From sequence record LR694611: DNA of 64,000 bases. One strand, written 5' to 3'. This DNA is from Escherichia phage rV5_ev158. Within the stretch, counting starts at the first letter, position 1. Every line of letters starts with the position of its first letter. Position numbers and translations under genes: made by a program. Below the pieces are notes generated by a model. That model was not told where the DNA came from. It saw only the letters and a program-made list of their open reading frames with translations, and made no database searches. Shown piece by piece: positions 956-62,595 of this stretch.

Positions 956-1030
956 GTTAATAGTATCTGTTCCAGGGCGAACATAAAACATACGAATCCT
1001 TATAGTACAGATATTTAAGTTTTTGCTGGT

Positions 1031-1381
1031 CTAACCAGTTGTTGACATTCGAATAACTTCTTCTGGTGGCAAAACTTTGGAAAATGTGCATCTTTTACCT
1101 CTCCCTTGTGTGGATATTTCAACCACTCCTGCACATTCTAAAGTTTTAACGCACGCTGCTGCTTTTGTTTTCTTTATCCCAACATCTGCTGCAATTTTCC
1201 TTGTGCTGGGTGTGAAGCGTGAATTTCCTCCAAGCTTATACCAGTTGTGCAGGTAGCAGTATACGATCTTGTCATACAAGTCAAGAACAACAACCTCCCC
1301 AGTTGTGTCATTCAAAACTTTTGACATAGATAGTATTTCAAGGGGGACTTTAAGATATAGCAGCTTATCCCCATCTTTCAT
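1031..1381 (-). CDS. putative helix-turn-helix DNA-binding protein
   Basis: AGGAG-type RBS before ATG; segment STRKIAADVGIKKTKAAACVKTLECAGVV resembles an HTH/winged-helix motif. Confidence 0.5.
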   Translation of the reverse strand: MKDGDKLLYLKVPLEILSMSKVLNDTTGEVVVLDLYDKIVYCYLHNWYKLGGNSRFTPSTRKIAADVGIKKTKAAACVKTLECAGVVEISTQGRGKRCTFSKVLPPEEVIRMSTTG

Positions 1382-1428
1382 ATCTCCTGATTCTCCTTGT
1401 GTGGCAATTTTCTTTAAAATAGCAGGGA

Positions 1429-1983
1429 TTACTCCCCGCTGTCAATAGCAAGACTCATTGCAATACGGTATGCCTCTTCTAATGGTAAGAGTCTCCCCCA
1501 CACATCCCAACCGACATCAAACTGCCTGCCAAACAACTGCTGTGTGGTTCCGTGAGCATGACCGAACAGTTGGACCGATCCGTGAGGCTTTCTGTTCCAC
1601 TTTGCAAACTGGTAATGGCTCATACAGATCAAATTCTTGTTGTGGCGAAGCTCGTAATAATCTACAACCTCATGACCGAACTCTTTCATAATTCTGACAG
1701 TCGTCCTTGTGTCATGGTTACCACGAACAAGAATAATATGTCCGTTCAACATATTTAGAACATCTGGGAGCAATTTGTTAATATTCTTATCATTAGTGCA
1801 CGCAATATCTCCTAAGTGAAACACAGTGTCTGCAGGTGACACAACAGAGTTCCACTTGGTGATGATCCCCGCATTCATACTGTCAAGATTGTGATCATAC
1901 TGAGATCTGTGTTTTTGACATGAATCAAACTCCATGACCCGCTGGTGGAGAAAGTGTGTGTCGCTTGTTACAAAGTATTTCAT
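1429..1983 (-). CDS. calcineurin-like metallophosphoesterase (putative polynucleotide 3'-phosphatase)
   Basis: motifs SDTHF, HLGD, GNHD; start moved to internal ATG (MKYFVTSDTHF) with GAGGA RBS, in frame with ORF 1429..2088. Confidence 0.7.
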   Translation of the reverse strand: MKYFVTSDTHFLHQRVMEFDSCQKHRSQYDHNLDSMNAGIITKWNSVVSPADTVFHLGDIACTNDKNINKLLPDVLNMLNGHIILVRGNHDTRTTVRIMKEFGHEVVDYYELRHNKNLICMSHYQFAKWNRKPHGSVQLFGHAHGTTQQLFGRQFDVGWDVWGRLLPLEEAYRIAMSLAIDSGE

Positions 1984-1990
1984 ACATTCC

Positions 1991-2401
1991 TCATTTAAGT
2001 TTAATGCAGTTTTTAAGCTGGCGTTCCATACGATCCACAACCTTGTCTGGAACATCATGAATGCTTTTATTACCGTGGCGGTTTTCAACCACGATCACGG
2101 TATAACTATACCCATGACTGATTGCCATGTCAACATATTCCTGCACATGTTTTTCTTTTGTAAACGTATTACTTACCACGATACGGTCGTATCCCATACG
2201 CATCATATCTTCTACGTTATCTTTGCACCATTTTGCTGCGAGTGTTACTTTACTTGCATCCCAGTTGTAATTGCCGTCATCGTCATACCAGAACATGTCG
2301 TTCTCAAAATGTGGATACAGACCCTCTAAAGATAGCGCATTTGCCAGTGTTGATTTGCCAGACCCTGGTAGACCACGCACGATATATAGCATTTTAGACA
2401 T
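1991..2401 (-). CDS. P-loop polynucleotide kinase-like protein
   Basis: Walker A GLPGSGKST near N-terminus; start moved to ATG (MSKMLYIVRG) preceded by GGAGGG, in frame with ORF 1991..2557. Confidence 0.7.
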   Translation of the reverse strand: MSKMLYIVRGLPGSGKSTLANALSLEGLYPHFENDMFWYDDDGNYNWDASKVTLAAKWCKDNVEDMMRMGYDRIVVSNTFTKEKHVQEYVDMAISHGYSYTVIVVENRHGNKSIHDVPDKVVDRMERQLKNCIKLK

Positions 2402-2501
2402 AGTAACCCTCCGTTTTAATTTCAATGATAGTATACCTAACTGTTTTGTTAATTTCAAGTGTTGACACTGGGTTATTTGTGTGGCAGGATAAAGGGACAA
2501 A

Positions 2502-3437
2502 ATGACAAATGAGGAACGTATGATGAAGTATTTTAATGCAGACGACCTGGTTGACAAAGGTCTTGTAACCAGCAGATATTACCCAGATCTTGGGTTAAAG
2601 ATCTATAAATATGCCAGAAAAGTATTCTACAACAACTTATGGCATTTGTCTCCTCGATTACTGGAGTGCCGAGGCATTGTTGTCGGTAATGAAGGAAATG
2701 TTGTGGCATGGCCCTTCACAAAAGTGTTTAACTTGGGAGAAAACTCCACCAACCTGCCTGACAATAAGCTTGTGACGGCGGTAGAGAAAAAGAACGGATT
2801 CCTTGGTGTGGTGTCATCTCATAAAGGTGAACTATTGTTCTCAACAACCGGGTCTCTTGATTCCCCATATTGTAACCTTGCAAAGGAAACCATCCAGGAG
2901 CAATGCGGTAATTTAGATCTTATCAAGAAGGTTATGGGCAATGAAAACATGACATTCATGTTTGAAATTTGTCACCCTTCAGATCCGCATATTGTTCAGG
3001 AAGATCATGGCGCATATTTGATAGGTTGCAGATATAATGATTCTGGAATAATGCTACCAGAAGCCGCTTTAGATGGGATTGCCAAATACCTTGGTGCAAA
3101 ACGTCCTCACACTGTGCGTGAAATTCCGTTCAGCTATGCAAAAGAGTTAGCTGCAGAAACAAGAGGTGAAGGATATATGATTCGTAAGCCTTACTACCCT
3201 TATGATCTGCAGTTGAAGATCAAGTCTCCATACTATCTGGCACGAAAGGCCGTAATGAGGGGTAAAGCTTGGAAGATTTGGGATGATGATATCTTTAAAC
3301 GTGTTGACGAAGAGTTTTACGGCATGGTAAACTTCATTCGTAACAACTACACAGAGGATGTATGGAACTGCCTCCTGGAGCAGGAACGCCGTGAGATACT
3401 TGACTGCTATTTCCACAACGAGGACTATATGCAATGA
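2502..3437 (+). CDS. ATP-dependent RNA ligase-like nucleotidyltransferase
   Basis: ligase motifs I KKNGF (KxNG, no Arg), IV EGYMIRK, V LKIK; start may be the ATG ~18 nt downstream (MMKYF) with GAGGA RBS. Confidence 0.6.
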   Translation: MTNEERMMKYFNADDLVDKGLVTSRYYPDLGLKIYKYARKVFYNNLWHLSPRLLECRGIVVGNEGNVVAWPFTKVFNLGENSTNLPDNKLVTAVEKKNGFLGVVSSHKGELLFSTTGSLDSPYCNLAKETIQEQCGNLDLIKKVMGNENMTFMFEICHPSDPHIVQEDHGAYLIGCRYNDSGIMLPEAALDGIAKYLGAKRPHTVREIPFSYAKELAAETRGEGYMIRKPYYPYDLQLKIKSPYYLARKAVMRGKAWKIWDDDIFKRVDEEFYGMVNFIRNNYTEDVWNCLLEQERREILDCYFHNEDYMQ

Positions 3438-3784
3438 AGAAGTTGATTGTGTGGCTGGATGACTTGAGAGATCCGTCAAATTACGGGCTCCAAGACGCTG
3501 TTTGGCTAAAGAATTCCTCCGAGTTTATAGATTTTATTAACGATAATAGAAAGCTCTACAGACGCGTTTCTGAGTGGCACATGGACAACGACCTTGGAGA
3601 GTTGTTCGAAGGGTACGATTGCCTATCTATGTTGGAGGAAAAATTTGTATTTGGTAAGCCCCCTGTAGTTGACAACGTGAAGATTTTCGTGCATACTTCT
3701 AACCCATCAGCGGCTCGTAAATTCATGCTTGCAGCTGACTCGTTTAAAAAGTTTGGAATAGAGATTAAACAAAACATCTACTGA
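3434..3784 (+). CDS. hypothetical protein
   Basis: ATGA overlap with upstream gene; co-directional packed ORF. Confidence 0.5.
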   Translation: MKKLIVWLDDLRDPSNYGLQDAVWLKNSSEFIDFINDNRKLYRRVSEWHMDNDLGELFEGYDCLSMLEEKFVFGKPPVVDNVKIFVHTSNPSAARKFMLAADSFKKFGIEIKQNIY

Positions 3785-3792
3785 GGACACTT

Positions 3793-4554
3793 ATGCGACG
3801 ACTGATTATTATCTCCGGTGCTGGTTTGAGCGCTGAATCTGGTATTCCCACTTTCCGATCTGGTAGCACTGCAATGTGGGAGAATTTCAGCATCGATGAG
3901 GTGTGCAACATCCACACCTTTGCCAAGAACTACTACAAGGTGCATGACTTTTACAATGCACGTCGTGTAGCTCTAGGCGGTGTTGAGCCTAACCTTGCAC
4001 ATCTTCGGATCGCTGAGTGGTATTCCCGCTGGTCTGGTCGTGTGATCAACCTTACCACCAATGTAGATGATTTGCTGGAGCGTGCTGGTGTAAAACATGA
4101 AGATATTTTACATGTTCACGGGTATTTGCCAGAAATAGTCTATGAGGACGATGAAGGAAGTGACGTCATTAAGGACATTGGATACTCTGAGGTAGATGCA
4201 GGAAAGTATACCTGGGTTAAACCTAATGTGGTGTTCTTCGGAGAAGTAGCTCCGAAGTATACAGACATGTATGACCTGTTGACTTCTCTTACAAGCAATG
4301 ATATGGTTATCCTTGTAGGGTGTTCCAACACAGTTATCAATTTTAACTGGGAGCTATTCCCTGCCTGCAATAAGGGCACCAAACTGCTGATCGTTAACAA
4401 ATACGACTCACAGCATCTAGAGGAGAATGGCATTTCACGTAGTGATATTTACCAGTACGAGGATCGCGGCATCCCGGTTTGGTTTAACGGGGCGGTTGAC
4501 GCTTTCTCTGATAAAACATTCATTGAGACCGTAGAAAACTTTATGGAACTTTAA
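3793..4554 (+). CDS. Sir2-family (sirtuin-like) NAD-dependent enzyme
   Basis: GAGLSAESGIPTFR, TTNVDDLLERAG, HVHG and PNVVFFGE motifs typical of sirtuins; no zinc CxxC pair seen. Confidence 0.8.
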   Translation: MRRLIIISGAGLSAESGIPTFRSGSTAMWENFSIDEVCNIHTFAKNYYKVHDFYNARRVALGGVEPNLAHLRIAEWYSRWSGRVINLTTNVDDLLERAGVKHEDILHVHGYLPEIVYEDDEGSDVIKDIGYSEVDAGKYTWVKPNVVFFGEVAPKYTDMYDLLTSLTSNDMVILVGCSNTVINFNWELFPACNKGTKLLIVNKYDSQHLEENGISRSDIYQYEDRGIPVWFNGAVDAFSDKTFIETVENFMEL

Positions 4555-4567
4555 AAGGAGACCTTTA

Positions 4568-5281
4568 ATGCTGAATACTAAACTGATCGACAACCTGGAA
4601 AAACTGTCTCAGCCTGAAAACTACCTTTGGTCTGCCAACTGGGTGGAAAACTGGAACCGTGTGGCAGCTAAAGTGAAAAAATCATACACACCATTCGAAT
4701 TACAGCTTAGCTTCATTGAGGAAGAGTTCAATGAGGTTTTGGAAGAGCTGGAGAAAGGTGATGGTGGAGATCACCTGCTAAAAGAGGCCTGCGATCTTCA
4801 CGTTGTCACAAGTTATGCCGCTTATCTTGTTAATGATAATCACGAAAAGTGGTCAAACCTGTTTGATAATCCACGAGGTCTTAAGTTCAAGATCGGTGAG
4901 TTCTATGATACACTGATCGCTGCGAAAAACACATCCAAGCAAAGAGCGTCAGCTTACCGCTTAGCGGAGTTGTCAACAGCTTTGCTGTTCCAGCTTCGCG
5001 GCGATGTGTGTGGTATGATGCGGAAGGTTCTCAAATCTAATGACAGCAAGTTTGCACGGATCAACCATCTACGATATTCTCACGGTGCCAGTGCAGATAT
5101 GTCTACTGAATTGCTCATAGAGTTAGAGATTGAAGATCTTGAGCGTCGTTTTGGTGGTCGCTACGAAGGTTTCGTTGCTAAAGAGGAGTTCTACAACGGT
5201 AATAAAGTTATTATATTCCTTGACAGTAAAGGTAAGATTATGAAGCCTTCGAGCTTCAAGGATGTAACAGAGTATATTTAA
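4568..5281 (+). CDS. MazG-like nucleoside triphosphate pyrophosphohydrolase (putative)
   Basis: EEEFNEVLEELEKGD...LLKEACDLHVV fits the MazG/HisE EExxE...D acidic helix pattern; judged by eye. Confidence 0.45.
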   Translation: MLNTKLIDNLEKLSQPENYLWSANWVENWNRVAAKVKKSYTPFELQLSFIEEEFNEVLEELEKGDGGDHLLKEACDLHVVTSYAAYLVNDNHEKWSNLFDNPRGLKFKIGEFYDTLIAAKNTSKQRASAYRLAELSTALLFQLRGDVCGMMRKVLKSNDSKFARINHLRYSHGASADMSTELLIELEIEDLERRFGGRYEGFVAKEEFYNGNKVIIFLDSKGKIMKPSSFKDVTEYI

Positions 5282-5287
5282 CAACAT

Positions 5288-5311
5288 AGCCGGGATTACC
5301 CGGCTTTACTT
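5288..5311 (+). terminator. hairpin AGCCGGG-ATTA-CCCGGCT after the MazG-like gene (weak T-run)
   Basis: inverted repeat read from sequence. Confidence 0.35.
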
Positions 5312-5343
5312 ATTATGGAAAGTATGCAGTGAGGTAGTTAGTT

Positions 5344-5652
5344 ATGTACAAGCATTCCAGAGATCTTGAAAAAGATGCTGTGTTTGGCGACCAGATGAAG
5401 GAGCTGATCAAACTTATAGGTAGAATGGAAGATAAGTTTGACACTAAAATCTACATCGATAGCAAGATCTTCAACCACAAAATATGGACAAATGTGTGTG
5501 TTGGGCTACATGGTGATAAAGATATTGTAAATTTGGTTGTAATAAAGTTCATAGTGTGGCAGAATAGGACTATACGTTATTCCGATCCACACTTACTTGT
5601 TTATCCTATAAAAGACCTACTACAGAAGGAGGACTGCAATGCCGTTATTTAA
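5344..5652 (+). CDS. hypothetical protein
   Basis: ORF in plus-strand gene chain. Confidence 0.45.
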   Translation: MYKHSRDLEKDAVFGDQMKELIKLIGRMEDKFDTKIYIDSKIFNHKIWTNVCVGLHGDKDIVNLVVIKFIVWQNRTIRYSDPHLLVYPIKDLLQKEDCNAVI

Positions 5653-5908
5653 TCTTGCTAAACCTGTAGAAGCACACCAGTTTGATGGAAGCTCTTCATC
5701 AGTATCTGATCTGCAACGGTGGATTGATACAGGTGTGTTTACATCGTCACCTGTTCGGACCAGAGATATTCGTCGCATGTGTGAGCTTGTTGAGCCGTTT
5801 GGCAACTTGGTTTTGTACCAGGGAGATTGGTTAGTTGACTTTATGGGAGACTGGTTGGTAATGAGTAAAGAAGAGATGTTTAAAATTTTTAAGGAAGAGG
5901 CCGAGTAA
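5639..5908 (+). CDS. hypothetical protein
   Basis: ORF in plus-strand gene chain; ATGA-type coupling to the ligase gene. Confidence 0.45.
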   Translation: MPLFNLAKPVEAHQFDGSSSSVSDLQRWIDTGVFTSSPVRTRDIRRMCELVEPFGNLVLYQGDWLVDFMGDWLVMSKEEMFKIFKEEAE

Positions 5909-7191
5909 TGCATCAAATCAAAACAACACTGTACGCACTGAACAAAGATGGCAGCTACCAACAGTGGAAAGTATTCACTGATGGCGAAAAGGTTATCGTA
6001 GAGTTTGGCAAGCTTGACGGTAAATTGCAGTACAAAGAGACGGTATGTACACCTAAAAACGTAGGTCGTGCCAACGAGACTACAGCTGAGCAACAGGCCG
6101 AGCTTGAGGCTATCAGCAAGTGGGAAAAACAAGTCCGTCTGGGGTATGTTGAAAACATGGAAGATTGCGAGCAGGGTGTTGATCTTTTACCTATGCTGGT
6201 GCATGACTACCTGAAGCGTGGCAAGGCACTTAAATTACCTTGCTGGATCTTGCGTAAGTTAGATGGCCTTCGTCTGCTTGTTGTTTTCCAAAATGGTGAG
6301 CCTAAATTTATTTCCCGTGGTAATAAGTCCTACCCTATTCAAGGAAAGCTTTTAGAGCAACTTCGTTCTTTCCATTCTACCACTGGGATTAAACAACTTG
6401 ATGGGGAACTATACATTCATGGTCTTCCTTTGCAGAAAATAGTGTCTCTTGCTAAACGGTGGCGCACACAGGAAGAGATTCAGGCCGAGATCGATAAAGA
6501 CTATGAGGCAGATAAAAAACGCCGTCATGCAGCAATTAAGGCAGGCTTATCAACATACAAAAACTTCAACAAGGTAGATATTCCTGTCGATGTTGAGCCT
6601 GTTCGTGATGATTTGCGTTACGGTGGATACTGTAGCTACGATCTGGAGTATCACATTTTTGATATTCCTAGCGACAAGGTGTGGTGGGATCCAGAAACAG
6701 AGTCTGGACGCTGCAAGGATCTTATGGATGCAGAGGATACCGTTACCACTCTGCTGCTTGATCATATCAAGGTTGTTGACGCAGAGCTTGCGTACACAGT
6801 TGATCATTGCGAAGAATCTGTTGGTATATTCATGTCCGAAGGATATGAAGGTACTATCATGCGTAATTTCTGCGGTAAATATGAGTATGGTCAGCGAACA
6901 TCTGAAGCATTGAAATGGAAAAAGTTCAACGACGCAGAGGTGAAAGTTATTGACGTTGAGAAAGATAAGAATGATGAAGGTGTTCTTATCTGTGTTGACA
7001 AGGAAGGTGTTGTTGTTAAAATGAAGATGAAAGGCACGCACGAGGAGCGTAGCTATGACAGGATGCAGGAAATGATCGGCAAGTTTGTCACCTTCAAATA
7101 TCAAGCAAGGACAGAAGACAACAACTACCAATTCCCTGTCGGTATCTGCGTCCGAAATGTTAACCCAGATACTTGGGAGGTTCTGGAATGA
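5908..7191 (+). CDS. ATP-dependent DNA ligase
   Basis: motif I KLDGLR (KxDGxR), motif IV EGTIMR, motif V KWKKF. Confidence 0.8.
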   Translation: MHQIKTTLYALNKDGSYQQWKVFTDGEKVIVEFGKLDGKLQYKETVCTPKNVGRANETTAEQQAELEAISKWEKQVRLGYVENMEDCEQGVDLLPMLVHDYLKRGKALKLPCWILRKLDGLRLLVVFQNGEPKFISRGNKSYPIQGKLLEQLRSFHSTTGIKQLDGELYIHGLPLQKIVSLAKRWRTQEEIQAEIDKDYEADKKRRHAAIKAGLSTYKNFNKVDIPVDVEPVRDDLRYGGYCSYDLEYHIFDIPSDKVWWDPETESGRCKDLMDAEDTVTTLLLDHIKVVDAELAYTVDHCEESVGIFMSEGYEGTIMRNFCGKYEYGQRTSEALKWKKFNDAEVKVIDVEKDKNDEGVLICVDKEGVVVKMKMKGTHEERSYDRMQEMIGKFVTFKYQARTEDNNYQFPVGICVRNVNPDTWEVLE

Positions 7192-7315
7192 TGTAGGCTG
7201 GTTTAGTAGGTAACGGTAGCCAATTGAATGATGGTTTTTCAATTGGCACCTACATAACCACACTATGCAGTGTTGTTGATCGGGTTAGTTATGAGCAAAC
7301 TGGAGAGTATGAAAA

Positions 7316-34242: not shown

Positions 34243-34560
34243 ATGCAAATTGAAATCACTGGCAACGTAGAAATCACTGAAGGTATGGTGTCTTTCATTT
34301 CCAACAAAATGTCTAAACTGGAGCGTTTGCACCCCTCTGCCAACTATGCACGTGTGAGTGTAAAAGTTGAAAATGATCACCAGGAAGTTATGGCGTTCAT
34401 TTTTGACAATTCTGGAAAAGAAGTTATTGCCAAGGCTAAAGGTAGTGATGCTTACGAGGCAACTGACCGTATGGTAGATGTTGCAGCACGTCAGCTGGCT
34501 AAATGCGGTGGAAAGAAAGGTAAGGGGAAAGGCAAAGTAAAGATTGACTTTGGAGAATGA
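34243..34560 (+). CDS. hypothetical protein (MQIEITG N-terminus, Lys/Gly-rich tail)
   Basis: ORF downstream of promoter. Confidence 0.5.
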   Translation: MQIEITGNVEITEGMVSFISNKMSKLERLHPSANYARVSVKVENDHQEVMAFIFDNSGKEVIAKAKGSDAYEATDRMVDVAARQLAKCGGKKGKGKGKVKIDFGE

Positions 34561-37880: not shown

Positions 37881-38118
37881 CTTAAATGCTGGAGACCATG
37901 TTGTTGTCAAATGCATCGGAGATTATCTTGGATTCACAATCGGCAATACTTACGAGGCGGTAGTGGCGAAGGTTTACCATGATAAAGTCCTCAGTCTTGT
38001 ATTTGACTGCGATGATGATGGGGATGACCGATACGTCTGTGAGGTGCTGGCACGAGACGATAGTGAAGACCAGAAATTCCTGGTTATTGAACTGAACGGT
38101 ATTTTTGTAGAACGTTAA
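37867..38118 (+). CDS. hypothetical protein
   Basis: ATG (MTKIDLNAG) after AAGGAG RBS, in frame with ORF 37801..38118. Confidence 0.45.
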   Translation: MTKIDLNAGDHVVVKCIGDYLGFTIGNTYEAVVAKVYHDKVLSLVFDCDDDGDDRYVCEVLARDDSEDQKFLVIELNGIFVER

Positions 38119-38146
38119 TTTAAAACAACATAAGGAGACTCTTACT

Positions 38147-38452
38147 ATGGCTAAATCTAAAGTTGAACTGTTCACCTCTCTTCCTTCTGACACTGCAGAG
38201 CGTGATCGCCTTCGCAAAACAATCGAAGAACTGGTAGAACTCCAACTTCAGATTAAAGATCTGAAAGATGCCATTAAGGATATCATTCTCGTTGAGAAGC
38301 AGGATCACCTGTATTCTCCTAAATTCATCAAATCTCTGGTGGCTACCGAGTTCGATATTCGCTATGAGGCTGAAAAACGTCGCGCTAAAATCGAAGAAGA
38401 GGTTGAGCACATGTCTGAGGCAGACATTCTGTTCAAACGCTCTGTAGAATAA
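38147..38452 (+). CDS. hypothetical protein (predicted helical, charged)
   Basis: AGGAG RBS before ATG. Confidence 0.5.
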   Translation: MAKSKVELFTSLPSDTAERDRLRKTIEELVELQLQIKDLKDAIKDIILVEKQDHLYSPKFIKSLVATEFDIRYEAEKRRAKIEEEVEHMSEADILFKRSVE

Positions 38453-38458
38453 TGACAA

Positions 38459-38486
38459 AGAGGGGGGCTTGGGCCCCTCTTTTTAC
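38459..38486 (+). terminator. intrinsic terminator, GC-rich hairpin AGAGGGG...CCCCTCT plus TTTTT
   Basis: read from sequence after 38452 stop. Confidence 0.6.
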
Positions 38487-38507
38487 TATCTATGAAGGAG
38501 ATTTGAG

Positions 38508-38834
38508 ATGGGTATACCGATTACTGTAAAAGAGCTAAATGAACGTGATGCAGGTGGTCTATGGCCTGCACGAAAAATCCGCTGCGTCTATATGAAAGAG
38601 AATCTTGAACATCTTGATCAACAGATAAAGGTCGGCGATATTTTCGAGGTCTTCTATTCCAATCGGCGCAACTGGGAAACCATTCAGCCTTCTGGTTTTG
38701 TTCTTGCCAAACTTGACACTGGAGAAGTGATTATCCCTGGGTTGGATATTGTCTTCGAAATTATCCAAGAGTGGGATCCGGATAAGATTAGATACGAAGA
38801 ATTATTCGGTAAAGGTATTATCAAACCTGTGTGA
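38508..38834 (+). CDS. hypothetical protein
   Basis: AGGAG RBS before ATG. Confidence 0.5.
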   Translation: MGIPITVKELNERDAGGLWPARKIRCVYMKENLEHLDQQIKVGDIFEVFYSNRRNWETIQPSGFVLAKLDTGEVIIPGLDIVFEIIQEWDPDKIRYEELFGKGIIKPV

Positions 38835-39142
38835 GGTGGATTATGTCTACAAAGGCGGCTAAATACTCCTATATGCCATCAACCTCTGCAGAGGTAGACT
38901 TTAGTTTCGATGTGTTTCCACTGTTTGAGGTGATTCTGGCATACCCAACAATACTATCTACTCCTGAATCACTTGTACCTGTTAAGTTGCAGAACGCTAT
39001 GCATTCTATGCACTACAACAACAAATGTAGGCACAGATGGTGTCAGGACGAGGAAAAAGATTTGGATAGTTTGAGGGATTTTGACAGTCACCTTTTGACA
39101 CCTTTCAGCTACTCCAACCTTGATAAGCCCTCATGGGTATAG
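38831..39142 (+). CDS. hypothetical protein
   Basis: ATGA coupling with upstream gene. Confidence 0.45.
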   Translation: MRWIMSTKAAKYSYMPSTSAEVDFSFDVFPLFEVILAYPTILSTPESLVPVKLQNAMHSMHYNNKCRHRWCQDEEKDLDSLRDFDSHLLTPFSYSNLDKPSWV

Positions 39143-39166
39143 CAAAATATCAAATTTAAGACACCT

Positions 39167-39193
39167 AGGACGCTCTGTGGCGTCCTTTTCTTT
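39167..39193 (+). terminator. intrinsic terminator AGGACGC-TCTGTG-GCGTCCT plus TTTCTTT
   Basis: read from sequence. Confidence 0.6.
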
Positions 39194-39355
39194 ATCTGGT
39201 GCACGATTGCATACCTTGGACAGATAATCTCGTTACAGAGCGTTTAAGAGCTTTCTACAAACAAGTCTCTCTTTCGAGCGTAGCGAGAACGCACGTCCGT
39301 TTTGACCCAAATCACCATACGCTCGGATTTTAACCAAACCCTCGCGGCGTTGCTG

Positions 39356-39384
39356 TTGACACATTACCGCTCCCGTGATAGTAT
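39356..39384 (+). promoter_or_regulatory. sigma70-type promoter TTGACA-N17-TAGTAT
   Basis: read from sequence. Confidence 0.55.
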
Positions 39385-39404
39385 CCACACACAGTTTGGA
39401 GAAT

Positions 39405-39506
39405 ATGGAATACACAATGAGAACATTGTCTGAAGTTTTAGTGGTGATCCTGATGATCATTACTTCCATAGCGGCTGTTGCCGGAATACTCACGGGTGGA
39501 ACATGA
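39405..39506 (+). CDS. small hydrophobic peptide (33 aa)
   Basis: MEYTMRTLSEVLVVILMIITSIAAVAGILTGGT; stop overlaps ATG of next ORF; below ORF-track cutoff. Confidence 0.35.
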   Translation: MEYTMRTLSEVLVVILMIITSIAAVAGILTGGT

Positions 39507-39715
39507 TCAACACACATGCATCTGAAGAGACATCCGAAGGAGTGACCATATGTCCCTTGGATGAGCCAGTTAAAGAGGAAAACTTAGATTCTGAGGACTC
39601 TTCATCTTCGTCCCAGACAGATCCTGAGGCTGATGACCTGACGTGGGAGGACATCGTAGATATCTGGTTCTCTATTATGCCTGAGCACGAAGAGTTCAGA
39701 GGTGGTAGACTATGA
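39503..39715 (+). CDS. small very acidic protein
   Basis: Asp/Glu/Ser-rich ORF coupled to upstream peptide. Confidence 0.4.
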   Translation: MINTHASEETSEGVTICPLDEPVKEENLDSEDSSSSSQTDPEADDLTWEDIVDIWFSIMPEHEEFRGGRL

Positions 39716-39836
39716 AGCACCGAGCCCACACAGGTTCCTCATGCTAAAGCATGGCCTGAAGAGGCAAACGTGTATAATTCTTGTGCATTGGAACGTATAA
39801 AACCCTGTTCACACTCTCATTCCCAGAGGAGATTTT

Positions 39837-40052
39837 ATGAAGATAGAGATATTTGGTGGAGCTGACAACACTCGTGGCCTGATTTACCTTGAATTCGATG
39901 AATCATACCTGCCAGAGGTGTTAAATATAGACTCTGTTGCTGAGGCTTTGGGAGTAAACCCTAAAGAACTCCACTCTTGTGCTGAGATCGATGGTTGGGA
40001 AGAGACCATGAACATTGATTTCAGTGAAGTAGAGGATGAACCGCTAGACTGA
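39837..40052 (+). CDS. small acidic protein (MKIEIFGG N-terminus); last plus-strand gene
   Basis: GAGGAG RBS; acidic tail EVEDEPLD. Confidence 0.45.
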   Translation: MKIEIFGGADNTRGLIYLEFDESYLPEVLNIDSVAEALGVNPKELHSCAEIDGWEETMNIDFSEVEDEPLD

Positions 40053-40748
40053 CACACAATCAGCTGCCCGGCTAAAGTGCTGGAAGCGCACCTATAACAC
40101 ATCTTTCAACTAAATTTCCTACCACCACAATCACTTACCTACCACACATGACTGTTTGCTTGTTTAGTGAGCAGTCATGCCTTGACATTCTTGCCTATCC
40201 TGATAAAATTAAGTTCTTCTCTTTTCTTTTACCGAGTAATTCGGGTTTTCTGTTCTCTTCGGTTTGAAGGGGTATGGAGATACACCTGAGTGAACAGGGT
40301 GAACAACCGAACCATTGGCTATGGCATTAGCATGGCGAAGCGGACGGGTGACGAAAGAGGGGCCGGAGGACACCAGTCACTGCCATATGATATATGGGTG
40401 ATAACCTGAAGAGTCTGAATAAGTGTTTAAGTACCAGTCAGAGGAAAAGGTGAATGGTAGCCGAAGGGGGATGGGGGGTTTCTTGTATCTTTAATTTGTA
40501 TATTATGTATACACTTGTAAACCAATCTCATCTGAATCTGTTTACCACACAAAGCGGATAGAGACAAATATCACCTATTAAACTTGAATTATTTATAGAA
40601 AATACCACAACACCACTTAAGTCTTTGATTTTACACACAAATCCTACAGATATTCAACCTCCATATTTAACATACTTGTAACATATTCCATACTCTACCT
40701 GTCTGATCAATTTCCCCAACTACATTCTCATATTTTCCCTGTCTGTAC

Positions 40749-40946
40749 TACCCCTGCCCCGCCGGGAGTCCCGTCATATCTGGCTTTCCAGCAAATATCA
40801 CACCCACAAATATCATTGCCTGAAGAGGGTTTCATCCCATAATACCTGCCTTACCTGAAGAGCGCTTCATACACCACGTAAATTTTTTAATTGACCTCCC
40901 CCTGCCCCGCCGGAGAGGTTGGCTTTTCCCACACAGACCTGAAGAG
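40749..40946. repeat. imperfect direct repeats, each starting CCCCTGCCCCGCCGG and ending CCTGAAGAG
   Basis: 9-mer CCTGAAGAG occurs five times between ~39755 and ~40946. Confidence 0.6.
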
Positions 40947-41522
40947 TCAGCCAGAAATATCTGAACAGGCCCAATTCTACCACGATTTTGACCTGACCTA
41001 CAGGGAGGCCCGAAGGGTCTAGCTTTCAGCTAGAGTCCTTGCAGGACCTACAGGAGCGCTGCCAGGCGGACGGAATGGGAATACTTCTCATTCTTATAAC
41101 AATTCTCAAATATCGAGACAGTGAGAGAAATTAATAGGCCAGGCCGTTCACACAGTGGCACAACATTTGCAACCTATTTTGGGTGGATGAATGAGAATAC
41201 CTATCATTGTGAGAACTGTTATCATTACGGGCAATTTAACATAATACCCATTATGCGCACCACCGGCGATACATACAGGGATTGATAACATGGGTTACTG
41301 TTTACGCACATAACAATTATATTTCTTACTATTTGTGTGGGATATAGTTAGCAGCCGATAGATTAGATATTAACCTGCAGACTTCTGACCGTCCAGACGT
41401 CTAAACGCCCACACACCAAGGATTATACATACACTCCTGAATGTAAACAGGGCCGCAAAAATGCTACCATACAAGCTTGTAAATTTTTCATGCAGCACTT
41501 GACAAAGAGGAGAAAAACTTGT

Positions 41523-41648
41523 CTGACATAATGTGACCTAACTGACACAACATGACACTTTTACACACCTATTAGTTTACACACTGGATTGTTTACATTC
41601 CTGATTGTTCACATGCTAACCATTTACATGATTGACTGTTTACACACC
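41523..41648. repeat. iteron-like short repeats: four TGACA-type at ~10 bp spacing, then five TGTTTACA-type at ~16 bp spacing
   Basis: read directly from sequence in ORF-free region. Confidence 0.5.
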
Positions 41649-41656
41649 GATAATCA

Positions 41657-41950
41657 GCCATGCCATTCGTTTGCATGAAAACAATTAACAAGATAACAAT
41701 CGACAAGTTAATAATCTTTCGCTGGCTATGCCAGGTGACTAGGTCACCCCTTCGGGCGTTCCTATGACATAATATAAAAGCAGGGCAACTATTAGCAGAT
41801 CTATAGTTGCCTTGCTTGTTATGTCATGATTAACTAAATACAAGGCAACTATGATCTGATTAATAGTTTGCAGACAAACTATCACGGGGGTGATGGTTAC
41901 TGCTTTTATATTATGTCGCGACTCCGTCGCGCCATGCCATTCGTTTGCAT
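41657..41950. repeat. composite dyad-symmetry element: 20-bp direct repeats flanking an 18-bp perfect inverted repeat and internal palindromes
   Basis: GCCATGCCATTCGTTTGCAT at ~41657 and ~41931; GACATAATATAAAAGCAG (41766-41783) inverted at 41901-41918; internal hairpins GGCAACTAT/ATAGTTGCC, GGTGAC-TAG-GTCACC, CGCGAC-TCC-GTCGCG. Confidence 0.6.
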
Positions 41951-42558
41951 AGTTGCCTTATTGTTACGAATAAAACAATTGCATTGTTAATGATTTCTTA
42001 TCTTTCTCTTAGTCATCTAATGATTCCAGTCAGTATAGTAATGTACAGTAAACATTAGACGACTAAAGATTTCTCTGTTTATGATAACTCATCTTGATAA
42101 TTTCGGACTGTTTACGAAAAATGTTGACACCTGAGCTGATTTATGTTATGCAGTTTACACGAATAATTATTTTATGCAGGTATTGACTATTCCGTTATTC
42201 TGTGGTTGGAATAAATACTTTGCAGGCTATAGAATGGCGTGCGTACGTGAATTCTGAGATCTGGCGGCTATAGTTATACTCGATTTTTCGCGTAGAACAC
42301 GCTTTCGATGCTGTGTAAGTGTATGACTTATAAAGATTTTTAGTTGTTGACAAGATATTGGAGATGTGCATCAGGTTAAAATTTGTGCAATAGCGGCATT
42401 ACGTGCACTTTTGGGAGAGAAAACGGGTAAAAATGGACTTGCTACCACACAATGAAAAATTATGCAATAGTTATTTTCCATGTATATTTGTACAGTATGT
42501 GGGATTGATGGCTAGTCAATTATTCCACTTGCCAGGTAGGGCCGTTTATGGTAGGAGA

Positions 42559-61462: not shown

Positions 61463-61717
61463 TTAATGTTCAGGTTTTACAAAAACTACTTCATTAACAG
61501 TGCACCAGACAGAGTCTCCTTCGTCATCTTTAAAGGTAAGGCACTGTGCTGAGTTTTCCAGCTCATCAATCTCTTCTTGTGATAAAGGGGCCCCTTCTTC
61601 CAGAAGGGCTTTTACCAGAGGGTTCTCACAAAACTCTGCTTCATAAATTGCACCGACTGTGCAGTCTTTAAAAGCTCGGTCATTTGCAACGCATTCTGGC
61701 TTCAAAGTAATTTTCAT
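61463..61717 (-). CDS. hypothetical protein, paralogue of the 61127..61459 product
   Basis: see paired ORF. Confidence 0.45.
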   Translation of the reverse strand: MKITLKPECVANDRAFKDCTVGAIYEAEFCENPLVKALLEEGAPLSQEEIDELENSAQCLTFKDDEGDSVWCTVNEVVFVKPEH

Positions 61718-61794
61718 CTTGGCAGTCTCCTTAGTTATTTAAAAAATCAACGCTTTGTTTGTGTGAAGCATCTTATATCTAATCTGACTTCTTG

Positions 61795-62166
61795 TCAATG
61801 GCTATTTTCAATCAGCCACACAGGGTCTAGGTAGATTTGTTGACGTCTTGCCCAATGACAAACTTCATTATACATCTGAATCTCTTTGTCTGTCAATTCA
61901 CGAATAGGCTCATCTATACCCTCATTTTTGTGGTAATCCCATTCTGCGTCTATCTCCCACAGCCATGACTTGTTGTCACCACGCTTACGCACACAGAAGT
62001 CACCAGGGCGGCCTGCCAATGCATTTAAGAACTCGTTCTCCGCTCGCTCCTGGAGAATACTAAGGAGCAAAACGTTGGAACATGACCGTAAAATATGCTT
62101 CAGCTCGCAGTCATCGATCTCAACTTCGATACGTTGTTTGACTGTGTGAGTACCTTTTACTAACAT
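61795..62166 (-). CDS. hypothetical protein
   Basis: start set at ATG (MLVKGTHT) after GAGGAGG RBS; in frame with ORF 61795..62193. Confidence 0.45.
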   Translation of the reverse strand: MLVKGTHTVKQRIEVEIDDCELKHILRSCSNVLLLSILQERAENEFLNALAGRPGDFCVRKRGDNKSWLWEIDAEWDYHKNEGIDEPIRELTDKEIQMYNEVCHWARRQQIYLDPVWLIENSH

Positions 62167-62176
62167 TCTACCTCCT

Positions 62177-62371
62177 CTAAACAAACTCTGCAAGGGTTGT
62201 GTTGTTCACTGCACCACAGTAAATGGAGTATCCCAGCCCATTAGGGTGCAGAAACCACGGCGTGCCGAAATTATCTTTCACGTAGACATCGCCGTTGCTT
62301 GTAAAGGGCCAATATTCTTCACCAAGGGTGAAATACCTACTCATACCCTCAGCCAGATACTTTACTTTCAT
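62177..62371 (-). CDS. hypothetical protein
   Basis: minus-strand ORF. Confidence 0.4.
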   Translation of the reverse strand: MKVKYLAEGMSRYFTLGEEYWPFTSNGDVYVKDNFGTPWFLHPNGLGYSIYCGAVNNTTLAEFV

Positions 62372-62595
62372 AGGTCCTCTTCAACAGCTACAAACTTGGC
62401 AAGCAGGGTGGTTCCGTAGATATGATACTCACCGTTTGCCAGATGGGAGATAAACCAGGCAATCCCTTCCTCGTCTTTAATCATCTTGTTTGCACGAGCT
62501 TTATCGTAATAAACCTCGTAGGTCTTTCCTTCTTTAAAGAATGACAGGTCTGTCATCTTTTCTTCTACAAAGGTAGCTTTAACCAAAGTCGTCAT
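62368..62595 (-). CDS. hypothetical protein
   Basis: coupled minus-strand ORF. Confidence 0.4.
   Translation of the reverse strand: MTTLVKATFVEEKMTDLSFFKEGKTYEVYYDKARANKMIKDEEGIAWFISHLANGEYHIYGTTLLAKFVAVEEDL

Follow-up and report, generated by a model that had tools for sequence, protein, structure and literature searches.

A likely RNA end-healing and sealing gene set in Escherichia phage rV5_ev158

Which function do three adjacent genes near the start of a 64,000-nucleotide stretch of Escherichia phage rV5_ev158 (sequence record LR694611; the whole stretch is referred to here as the window) serve, and do they serve it together? At positions 1429 to 3437 they encode a metallophosphoesterase, a small P-loop kinase, and an RNA ligase. 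We consider it likely that the three constitute a phage RNA end-healing and sealing module, which repairs RNAs with 2',3'-cyclic-phosphate and 5'-OH ends. Our analysis established which families the proteins belong to, that their catalytic residues are conserved, and that the three activities are linked and in places fused. The finding as such is not new, since public records already carry annotations of the genes and the neighborhood has been published with this phage as a prototype. Iyer, Burroughs, Anantharaman and Aravind (2022, Viruses 14:1977; PMC9503650) described a sirtuin-centered neighborhood, with Escherichia phage V5 and Proteus phage Mydo as prototypes; the locus in the window is this one, and the phage lineage is also shared. 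They predicted that 2',3'-cyclic-phosphate RNA ends are cleaned there for ligation, with the sirtuin acting in the manner of KptA/Tpt1. Added here are the aq_1665-type affiliation of the phosphoesterase, the affinity of the kinase to polynucleotide kinases, the truncated architecture of the ligase, the gene fusions, and a core of three genes rather than the sirtuin.

The three open reading frames (ORFs) are real genes, not chance ORFs. The metallophosphoesterase gene (1429..1983, minus strand) encodes 184 amino acids; the full ORF extends over 1429-2088, but MKYF is the real start, such that the protein begins MKYFVTSDTHF. The kinase gene (1991..2401, minus strand) lies within a full ORF of 1991-2557 and encodes a 136-amino-acid AAA_33 protein whose real start is MSKM and whose N-terminus reads MSKMLYIVRGLPGSGKST. 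Because only 7 nucleotides separate the kinase stop codon from the phosphoesterase start on the same strand, it is plausible that the two genes share one transcript. The ligase gene (2502..3437, plus strand; in-frame alternative starts at 2520 and 2523) encodes a 311-amino-acid, Rnl1-like, ATP-dependent RNA ligase with a short C-terminal helical module. A divergent intergenic region of 100 bp (2402..2501) lies between the kinase operon and the ligase operon. It holds a sigma-70-like match on the minus strand (2458-2430), and the promoter and terminator scan of the window was overall not above chance (20 promoters found, with 14.4 ± 4.3 expected). All three proteins scored above Pfam gathering thresholds and belong to large families of homologs. 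Window positions 1000-7200 were 100% identical to phage rV5_ev168 (Vequintavirus), and 122 phage records matched the region at an identity of at least 90%; their annotations read phosphoesterase; ATPase, kinase or "3'-phosphatase, 5'-polynucleotide kinase"; and RNA ligase. ORFs, Pfam matches, and these records together confirm what the initial annotation had proposed from the letters, namely a ligase divergent from a minus-strand pair, with each activity on a polypeptide of its own.

Is the ligase an RNA ligase or a DNA ligase? It matched Pfam PF09511 (RNA_lig_T4_1) at 56.0 bits, with a gathering threshold of 28.3, across the full model (1-227), and it matched phrog_562, the T4 gp63 family, at 1e-66. 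A search of the PDB with the single sequence returned nothing meaningful, and a profile was needed. The family profile, built from 31 homologs of 41-50% identity, matched T4 Rnl1 (2C5U) at E=7e-13, and hhalign aligned the family to T4 RnlA with 97.6% probability across T4 residues 33-248. The AlphaFold (AF2) model of the ligase had a predicted local distance difference test (pLDDT) score of 91.6. When this model was compared with the PDB using Foldseek, the ligase domain of Trl1 (Trl1-LIG), T4 Rnl1, and Rnl3 were at the top (E ~1e-11 to 1e-12). Ranks 1-32 were all occupied by RNA-ligase-family structures (Trl1, T4 Rnl1, Rnl3, NgrRnl, and Rnl2), among them an Aquifex entry that had been submitted as a putative DNA ligase, and the first characterized DNA ligase appeared at rank 33 (E=1.4e-5). 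By profile, hhalign, and Foldseek, then, the protein groups with T4 Rnl1 and fungal Trl1, and not with DNA ligases or capping enzymes.

The motifs that had been read from the sequence were all found in the translation: KKNG at 96-99, EGYMIRK at 223-229, and LKIK at 238-241, with K96 and G99, E223, and K239 and K241 as the motif residues. Motif I, KKNGFL, has Leu five positions past the Lys, as does KEDGSL of T4 Rnl1. As an internal control, the DNA ligase of the window (5908-7191) carries KLDGLR, in which the Arg expected of DNA ligases is present. Eleven residues of T4 Rnl1 are said to be essential in work by Wang, Ho and Shuman from 2003 (R54, K75, F77, K99, G102, K119, E159, E227, G228, K240, and K242), and 10 of these 11 aligned with positions that are invariant in the rV5 ligase family (R57, K74, F76, K96, G99, E155, E223, G224, K239, and K241). 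The protein scored 39.3 bits against NCBIfam TIGR02308, the T4 RnlA equivalog, for which the cutoff is 242.25, and it is a relative rather than an equivalog of T4 RnlA. Past motif V it has a short helical tail of ~65 residues in which E270, E271, W288, and R296 are conserved. We assign it to the Rnl1-like RNA ligases as a distinct subfamily. This subfamily counts 1681 clusters in the protein database and occurs in 761 cultured phage genomes, with Escherichia, Pseudomonas, Vibrio, Klebsiella, Acinetobacter, and Streptomyces as hosts.

In PHROG and in many GenBank records, the ligase goes under the name "RNA ligase and tail fiber protein attachment catalyst". The label brings up the alternative that the three genes are neighbors without a common pathway, the ligase being a tail-fiber attachment factor (the second role of T4 gp63) and the kinase and phosphoesterase acting in nucleotide metabolism or signaling. 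We consider this highly improbable. The "tail" label is merely inherited from T4 gp63, and all of the ligase catalytic residues tested are invariant at 35-50% identity, which points to selection on catalysis. The same alternative draws on the kinase, in that Iyer et al. name it a "nucleotide kinase" and the module sits amid nucleotide-metabolism genes; the comparisons that follow bear on this point.

The family of the kinase, made up of stand-alone AAA_33 proteins of ~130 amino acids, is very large, with ~8000 or more clusters. The P-loop of the rV5 kinase is GLPGSGKST, with G10, G13, G15, K16, and T18 invariant, and D35, also invariant, aligned to the catalytic Asp35 of T4 that activates the 5'-OH. 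As with the ligase, the single sequence retrieved nothing meaningful from the PDB, and a profile was needed. The leading matches of the profile were RazKIN (the stand-alone tRNA-splicing RNA kinase of Rhizopus), Pnkp1 from Capnocytophaga, LcoKIN from Lichtheimia, PSTK, T4 Pnk, and CthPnkp; adenylate and shikimate kinases were weaker and matched in the P-loop only. Alignment of the family to T4 PseT with hhalign gave 95.7% probability (E=1e-8) in the kinase domain, and it placed the P-loop Lys and Ser opposite T4 Lys15 and Ser16. The lid segment ENRHG...VP aligned to KRNSKRGTKAVP. Within it, R108-H109 is invariant and R108 aligns to T4 R122; T4 Arg126, which contacts the phosphates of the nucleoside triphosphate, lies opposite a variable Lys. 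NCBIfam returned nothing useful for the kinase.

The profile searches thus connected the ligase to T4 Rnl1 and the kinase to the Pnkp domains of T4 Pnk and CthPnkp. Polynucleotide kinases ranked above nucleotide kinases in every comparison, which argues against a nucleoside or nucleotide kinase and, with it, against unrelated neighbors. Profile, hhalign, and structure place the kinase in the clade of polynucleotide or RNA 5'-OH kinases, although the margins are modest and homology alone leaves some doubt about its class. Most of this doubt is removed by the gene context, that is, by the linkage of the kinase to the ligase and its fusions with it.

The third protein matched both Metallophos_2 and Metallophos in Pfam above gathering and phrog_547 at 5e-51. 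The calcineurin-like motifs (DxH, GD, GNH[DE], H, and GHxH) were invariant in 21 homologs of 28-48% identity; the residues are D8-x-H10, G58-D59, G88-N89-H90, H123, and G141-H142-x-H144. The only solved close relative recovered when its profile was compared with the PDB was Aquifex aq_1665 (1XM7; E=5e-25), and none of the lambda-phosphatase or CthPnkp phosphatase chains was matched up to E=0.1. On this basis the protein is of the aq_1665 type and falls outside the lambda-phosphatase/CthPnkp clade. CthPnkp and lambda phosphatase belong to a superfamily able to heal 2',3'-cyclic and 3'-phosphate RNA ends, as described in PMC2190708. For the rV5 protein, we propose a role in 3'-end healing, as a 2',3'-cyclic phosphodiesterase or 3'-phosphatase, from its gene context.

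It had also been suggested that this metallophosphatase takes the place of the T4-type haloacid dehalogenase (HAD) phosphatase. The motifs are invariant, and a tblastn search with T4 PseT gave no match for the HAD phosphatase half anywhere in the window. The replacement is not new, however, since bacterial Pnkp also has a metallophosphatase, although the family present here differs from that of bacterial Pnkp.

Do the three proteins act together? We regard gene context as the decisive evidence for a functional link among kinase, phosphoesterase, and ligase. We collected 80 viral loci with ligases 35-49% identical to that of rV5, plus one close relative, and scanned their ORFs with profiles of the window proteins, counting as neighbors those within 8 kb. 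The kinase was found near the ligase in 75 of the 80 loci and the phosphoesterase in 62. At least five arrangements occurred: phosphoesterase-ligase-kinase (36 loci), kinase-ligase-phosphoesterase (19), ligase-phosphoesterase-kinase (3), the divergent rV5 type (1), and, in 13 phage loci, an in-frame fusion with the kinase at the N-terminal end of the ligase. Pfam detected AAA_33 and RNA_lig_T4_1 inside one ORF of 432 amino acids. Because the first iterated kinase hidden Markov model absorbed these fusions, a clean, rebuilt model was used for later scans. A second survey, seeded with the phosphoesterase, located the ligase nearby in 48 of 80 loci, often overlapping the phosphoesterase gene.

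Fusions were found in several settings. The 13 phage fusions, proteins of ~430 amino acids (e.g., contig L051, 7527-8825), were on metagenomic phage contigs, and within 4 kb of them we detected neither a phosphoesterase of the rV5 family nor another recognizable phosphatase. In four loci assigned to Cardiobacteriaceae, a kinase-ligase fusion was followed directly downstream by an rV5-type phosphoesterase. These contigs are bacterial, from metagenome-assembled genomes, one of them 284 kb long, and the sets they carry may be cellular or prophage copies. Leptolyngbyaceae (loci L197-L220) had a single protein of 750-790 amino acids with AAA_33, then Metallophos, then RNA_lig_T4_1, as in Leptolyngbya sp. 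PCC 7375 (L204, 4546-6861). The kinase and phosphatase domains of the cyanobacterial protein were of the CthPnkp type (4GP6 at 4e-11 and 4J6O at 3e-24, respectively). An RtcB gene lies 1.6 kb downstream of the trifunctional protein in L204, and Hen1 was not seen among its scanned neighbors.

Because the linkage survives rearrangement and has turned into fusion repeatedly, it is strong evidence that the three activities act on one shared substrate. The proposal of a single healing-and-sealing pathway is thereby supported. Fusions of kinase with ligase, and of kinase with phosphatase and ligase, are hard to explain without a shared pathway, and the fusions with an RNA ligase make both unrelated neighbors and a role in DNA repair unlikely.

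The DNA alternative merits its own account. Here the kinase and phosphoesterase would work in the manner of PNKP: they would clean 5'-OH and 3'-phosphate ends of DNA so that a nearby DNA ligase could seal them while nicked phage DNA is replicated, recombined, or repaired. The ATP-dependent DNA ligase gene of the window (5908-7191; KLDGLR motif I, DNA_ligase_A_M and OB domain) is 2.5 kb away. In addition, T4 Pnk and the Mucorales KIN enzymes, the closest polynucleotide kinases by sequence and fold, also act on DNA ends according to PMC11571804, and in NCBIfam the phosphoesterase weakly matches PdeM, a ligase-associated endonuclease of DNA damage (E=2e-4, well short of the cutoff). Fusion and tight adjacency, however, always involved the Rnl1-like ligase and in no case the DNA ligase. 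Where the DNA ligase lay with respect to the three genes varied, with other genes between, and about half of the loci with the three-gene set had no DNA ligase nearby. We therefore give DNA end processing very little credence.

Is the module confined to these three genes? In the window, three further plus-strand genes follow the ligase. The first encodes a 116-amino-acid cREC (cyclic-phosphate-processing receiver-like) protein (3434..3784; Pfam PF20274 at 3e-15, phrog_1479, nothing useful in NCBIfam), in which D9, D10, D51, and D53 are invariant; its start overlaps the ligase stop codon. The group of Iyer et al. also defined the cREC domain (PMC7824862). The second encodes a Sir2-family sirtuin of 253 amino acids (3793..4554; Pfam SIR2 at 5.5e-27, phrog_2162 at 3e-109), which keeps the GAGxS...GIPxFR and HG motifs and whose translation has no CxxC zinc-module cysteines. 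The third encodes a 237-amino-acid homolog of MazG-like nucleotide pyrophosphohydrolases (4568..5281; phrog_671 at 5.7e-22, no Pfam match). Beyond the cREC overlap, the genes are separated by gaps of only 8 and 13 nucleotides. A perfect 7-bp GC-rich hairpin (AGCCGGG-ATTA-CCCGGCT, 5288-5305), which has a terminator score on both strands, follows the MazG-like gene. In this tightly packed unit, cREC, Sir2, and the MazG-like gene are co-transcribed with the ligase, its first gene, and the hairpin marks the end of the ligase operon. The initial annotation was thus right about the three genes and their link, but the module is larger here than the set it described. All six genes of the "type 2" neighborhood of Iyer et al. 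(sirtuin, ligase, cREC, kinase, MazG-like, and an optional phosphoesterase) lie in window positions 1429-5281.

The additional genes are the basis of the principal alternative, a eukaryote-like pathway dependent on nicotinamide adenine dinucleotide (NAD+), as explicitly proposed in PMC9503650. In that pathway, cREC would open the cyclic phosphate so that a 2'-phosphate remains, and the 5' end would be phosphorylated by the kinase; the ligase would join 3'-OH,2'-PO4 and 5'-PO4 ends like Trl1, and Sir2 with NAD+ would remove the 2'-phosphate like Tpt1/KptA. The MazG-like protein, the phosphoesterase, or both would clear ADP-ribose cyclic-phosphate, and the phosphoesterase would not be the main 3' healer. 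The packing of ligase, cREC, Sir2, and MazG-like genes in one unit closed by a hairpin speaks for this pathway, as does the presence of the Trl1 ligase domain among the top Foldseek matches of the ligase. Their distribution does not: Sir2, cREC, and MazG accompanied the ligase in only 11-13 of the 80 loci (Sir2 in 11, all large rV5-related phages), which came from a single group of ~145-kb rV5- and phAPEC8-like phages plus two unrelated contigs with cREC, whereas phosphoesterase and kinase were almost everywhere. In these two contigs, too, cREC sits beside the three-gene set; more distant cREC loci did not have the ligase, kinase, and phosphoesterase set. 2'-Phosphotransferase activity is not known from any sirtuin, a literature search for a sirtuin acting as Tpt1 found no such work, and PMC9503650 itself calls cREC experimentally uncharacterized. 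No sequence feature of the ligase has been shown to require a 2'-phosphate. Overall, we think it unlikely that the locus works primarily in this way.

Given this restriction to one phage group, we read kinase, phosphoesterase, and ligase as a widespread core and cREC, Sir2, and the MazG-like protein as a lineage-specific addition. This differs from Iyer et al., who centered on the sirtuin, described the phosphoesterase as occasional, and spoke of a nucleotide kinase; in our counts phosphoesterase and kinase are core, and the kinase groups with polynucleotide kinases. The added genes probably provide an accessory branch for cyclic or 2'-phosphate ends, and in rV5 the NAD-dependent pathway could run in parallel with the core one. 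A bolder version, which as a whole we hold to be rather doubtful, has two parts: the trio of aq_1665-type phosphoesterase, mini kinase (~130 amino acids), and short ligase would be a self-sufficient, uncharacterized RNA-repair system of hundreds of cultured phages, to which the rV5 lineage has added an NAD-consuming branch. Carriers of the trio include Vequintavirinae, phAPEC8-like phages, Pakpunavirus-type Pseudomonas phages, and Vibrio and Acinetobacter phages. If this version is true, the cREC/sirtuin/MazG-like branch is a viral analog of eukaryotic Trl1-Tpt1 that handles 2'-phosphate ends, with a sirtuin in the role of Tpt1.

How would the core module of kinase, phosphoesterase, and ligase work? 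An RNA would be cut by a metal-independent ribonuclease, leaving 2',3'-cyclic-phosphate and 5'-OH ends. The small P-loop kinase would phosphorylate the 5'-OH end, and the binuclear metallophosphoesterase would open and remove the 2',3'-cyclic phosphate or 3'-phosphate to give a 3'-OH. The Rnl1-like ligase, adenylylated on Lys96, would then move adenosine monophosphate to the 5'-phosphate and seal the break. The chemistry of these steps is known from the T4 Pnkp/Rnl1 and bacterial Pnkp pathways; our view of the substrates, of the sequence of steps, and of a connection to host anticodon nucleases is inference. The RNA in question would most plausibly be tRNA cut by such nucleases. This tRNA assignment gains weak support from the fact that the kinase-phosphoesterase unit is transcribed toward a phage tRNA cluster ~3 kb off.

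Several observations weigh against RNA end healing and sealing, or against tRNA as its substrate. The counterpart of T4 Lys119 in the ligase is T116, an invariant Thr in the family. The C-terminal all-helical domain of T4 Rnl1 (~255-374) is absent from the rV5 ligase, with the hhalign alignment ending at T4 residue 248. In T4 Rnl1, this domain confers tRNA specificity, and because it is missing, homology does not support tRNA as the ligase substrate. Arg38 and Asp85 are functional residues in the T4 Pnk literature; the first is not kept in the kinase (W38, with Phe as the consensus), and the position of the second is an invariant Asn (N78) in the kinase family. The aq_1665 family has no characterized member and is not the clade with demonstrated RNA end healing. 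In 42 of the 80 loci, the RNA ligase also had an ATP-dependent DNA ligase as a neighbor, at most 8 kb away. Many of the 80 loci are from related phages, such that the counts overstate the number of independent events. Finally, a literature search found no biochemical or genetic test of the module for rV5, Vequintavirus, or Pakpunavirus phages.

How does the gene set compare with known repair systems? It follows the same logic as T4 Pnkp (PseT) with Rnl1 (RnlA), combining 5' kinase, 3' healing, and an Rnl1-type ligase, and homology to the T4 enzymes can be detected both in the kinase domain and in the nucleotidyltransferase domain of the ligase. Unlike in T4, the rV5 kinase is a stand-alone protein of 136 amino acids without the HAD (DxDxT) domain, 3' healing is assigned to a separate metallophosphoesterase, and the ligase is without the C-terminal domain and far below the equivalog cutoff (39 versus 242 bits). 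The bacterial Pnkp systems (Clostridium thermocellum; Pnkp1-Rnl-Hen1) share the three chemistries proposed for rV5, their 3' healer being likewise a binuclear metallophosphoesterase (PMC2190708), and have a kinase homologous to that of rV5. The rV5 set differs in its three polypeptides, its aq_1665-family phosphoesterase, and a ligase that is Rnl1-like by Pfam and profile. In cyanobacteria, relatives of the rV5 ligase share one protein with a kinase and a phosphatase of the CthPnkp type, in the order kinase-phosphatase-ligase, as in bacterial Pnkp.

A precedent for the split into separate polypeptides comes from tRNA splicing in Mucorales. As described by Ghosh et al. (2024; PMC11571804), this system has a stand-alone ligase and a stand-alone RNA 5'-OH kinase, whose essential Asp36 is in the same region as D35 of the rV5 kinase. 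It is a system of eukaryotic tRNA splicing in which GTP is the donor and the ligase needs a 2'-PO4, and the match between the rV5 and Mucorales kinases in sequence is mostly in the P-loop region.

Why would such a module matter? Defenses that cleave tRNA (PrrC, RloC, PARIS, and retron or CRISPR effectors) are now recognized as a common strategy of bacterial immunity. To our knowledge, among the repair systems with which phages respond, experiments have so far worked out only T4 Pnkp/Rnl1. The rV5-type module would be a second repair architecture, built from different parts that include a phosphoesterase family without known function, and far more widespread among cultured phages. The module occurs in therapy phages and in phages of standard collections, which makes its influence on host range in the face of RNA-targeting defenses directly testable.

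What else surrounds the locus? Directly downstream of the phosphoesterase, a minus-strand gene (1031-1381) encodes a small helix-turn-helix (HTH)/DUF6945 protein. Its PHROG match (2.5e-80) was to 12838, "replication initiation protein", whereas its annotation reads putative transcriptional regulator; no homolog of it was found in the 80 ligase-seeded loci. As an observation on the two ligases of the window, RNA ligase and DNA ligase tend to travel together in the distant viral loci. There are no tRNA genes within the 64-kb window. Just to its left, in the LR694610.1 record (where the window starts at ~63950), is a cluster of six tRNA genes (61629-62441): Pro, Met, Thr, one unassigned, Tyr, and Arg. 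The cluster is on the strand of the kinase and phosphoesterase genes, downstream of both. The corresponding cluster in phage Mangalyan also has Ser and Lys genes.

Farther along the window, the GC skew flips from positive to negative at ~38-40 kb (window ~38000-42000), indicating a switch of coding strand or of replication arm. Public annotation places a homolog of the S30AE ribosome hibernation promotion factor at window ~34243-34560 (LR694610.1, 98192-98509), and a PhoH-like protein and a ClpP subunit are annotated within the 10 kb before it.

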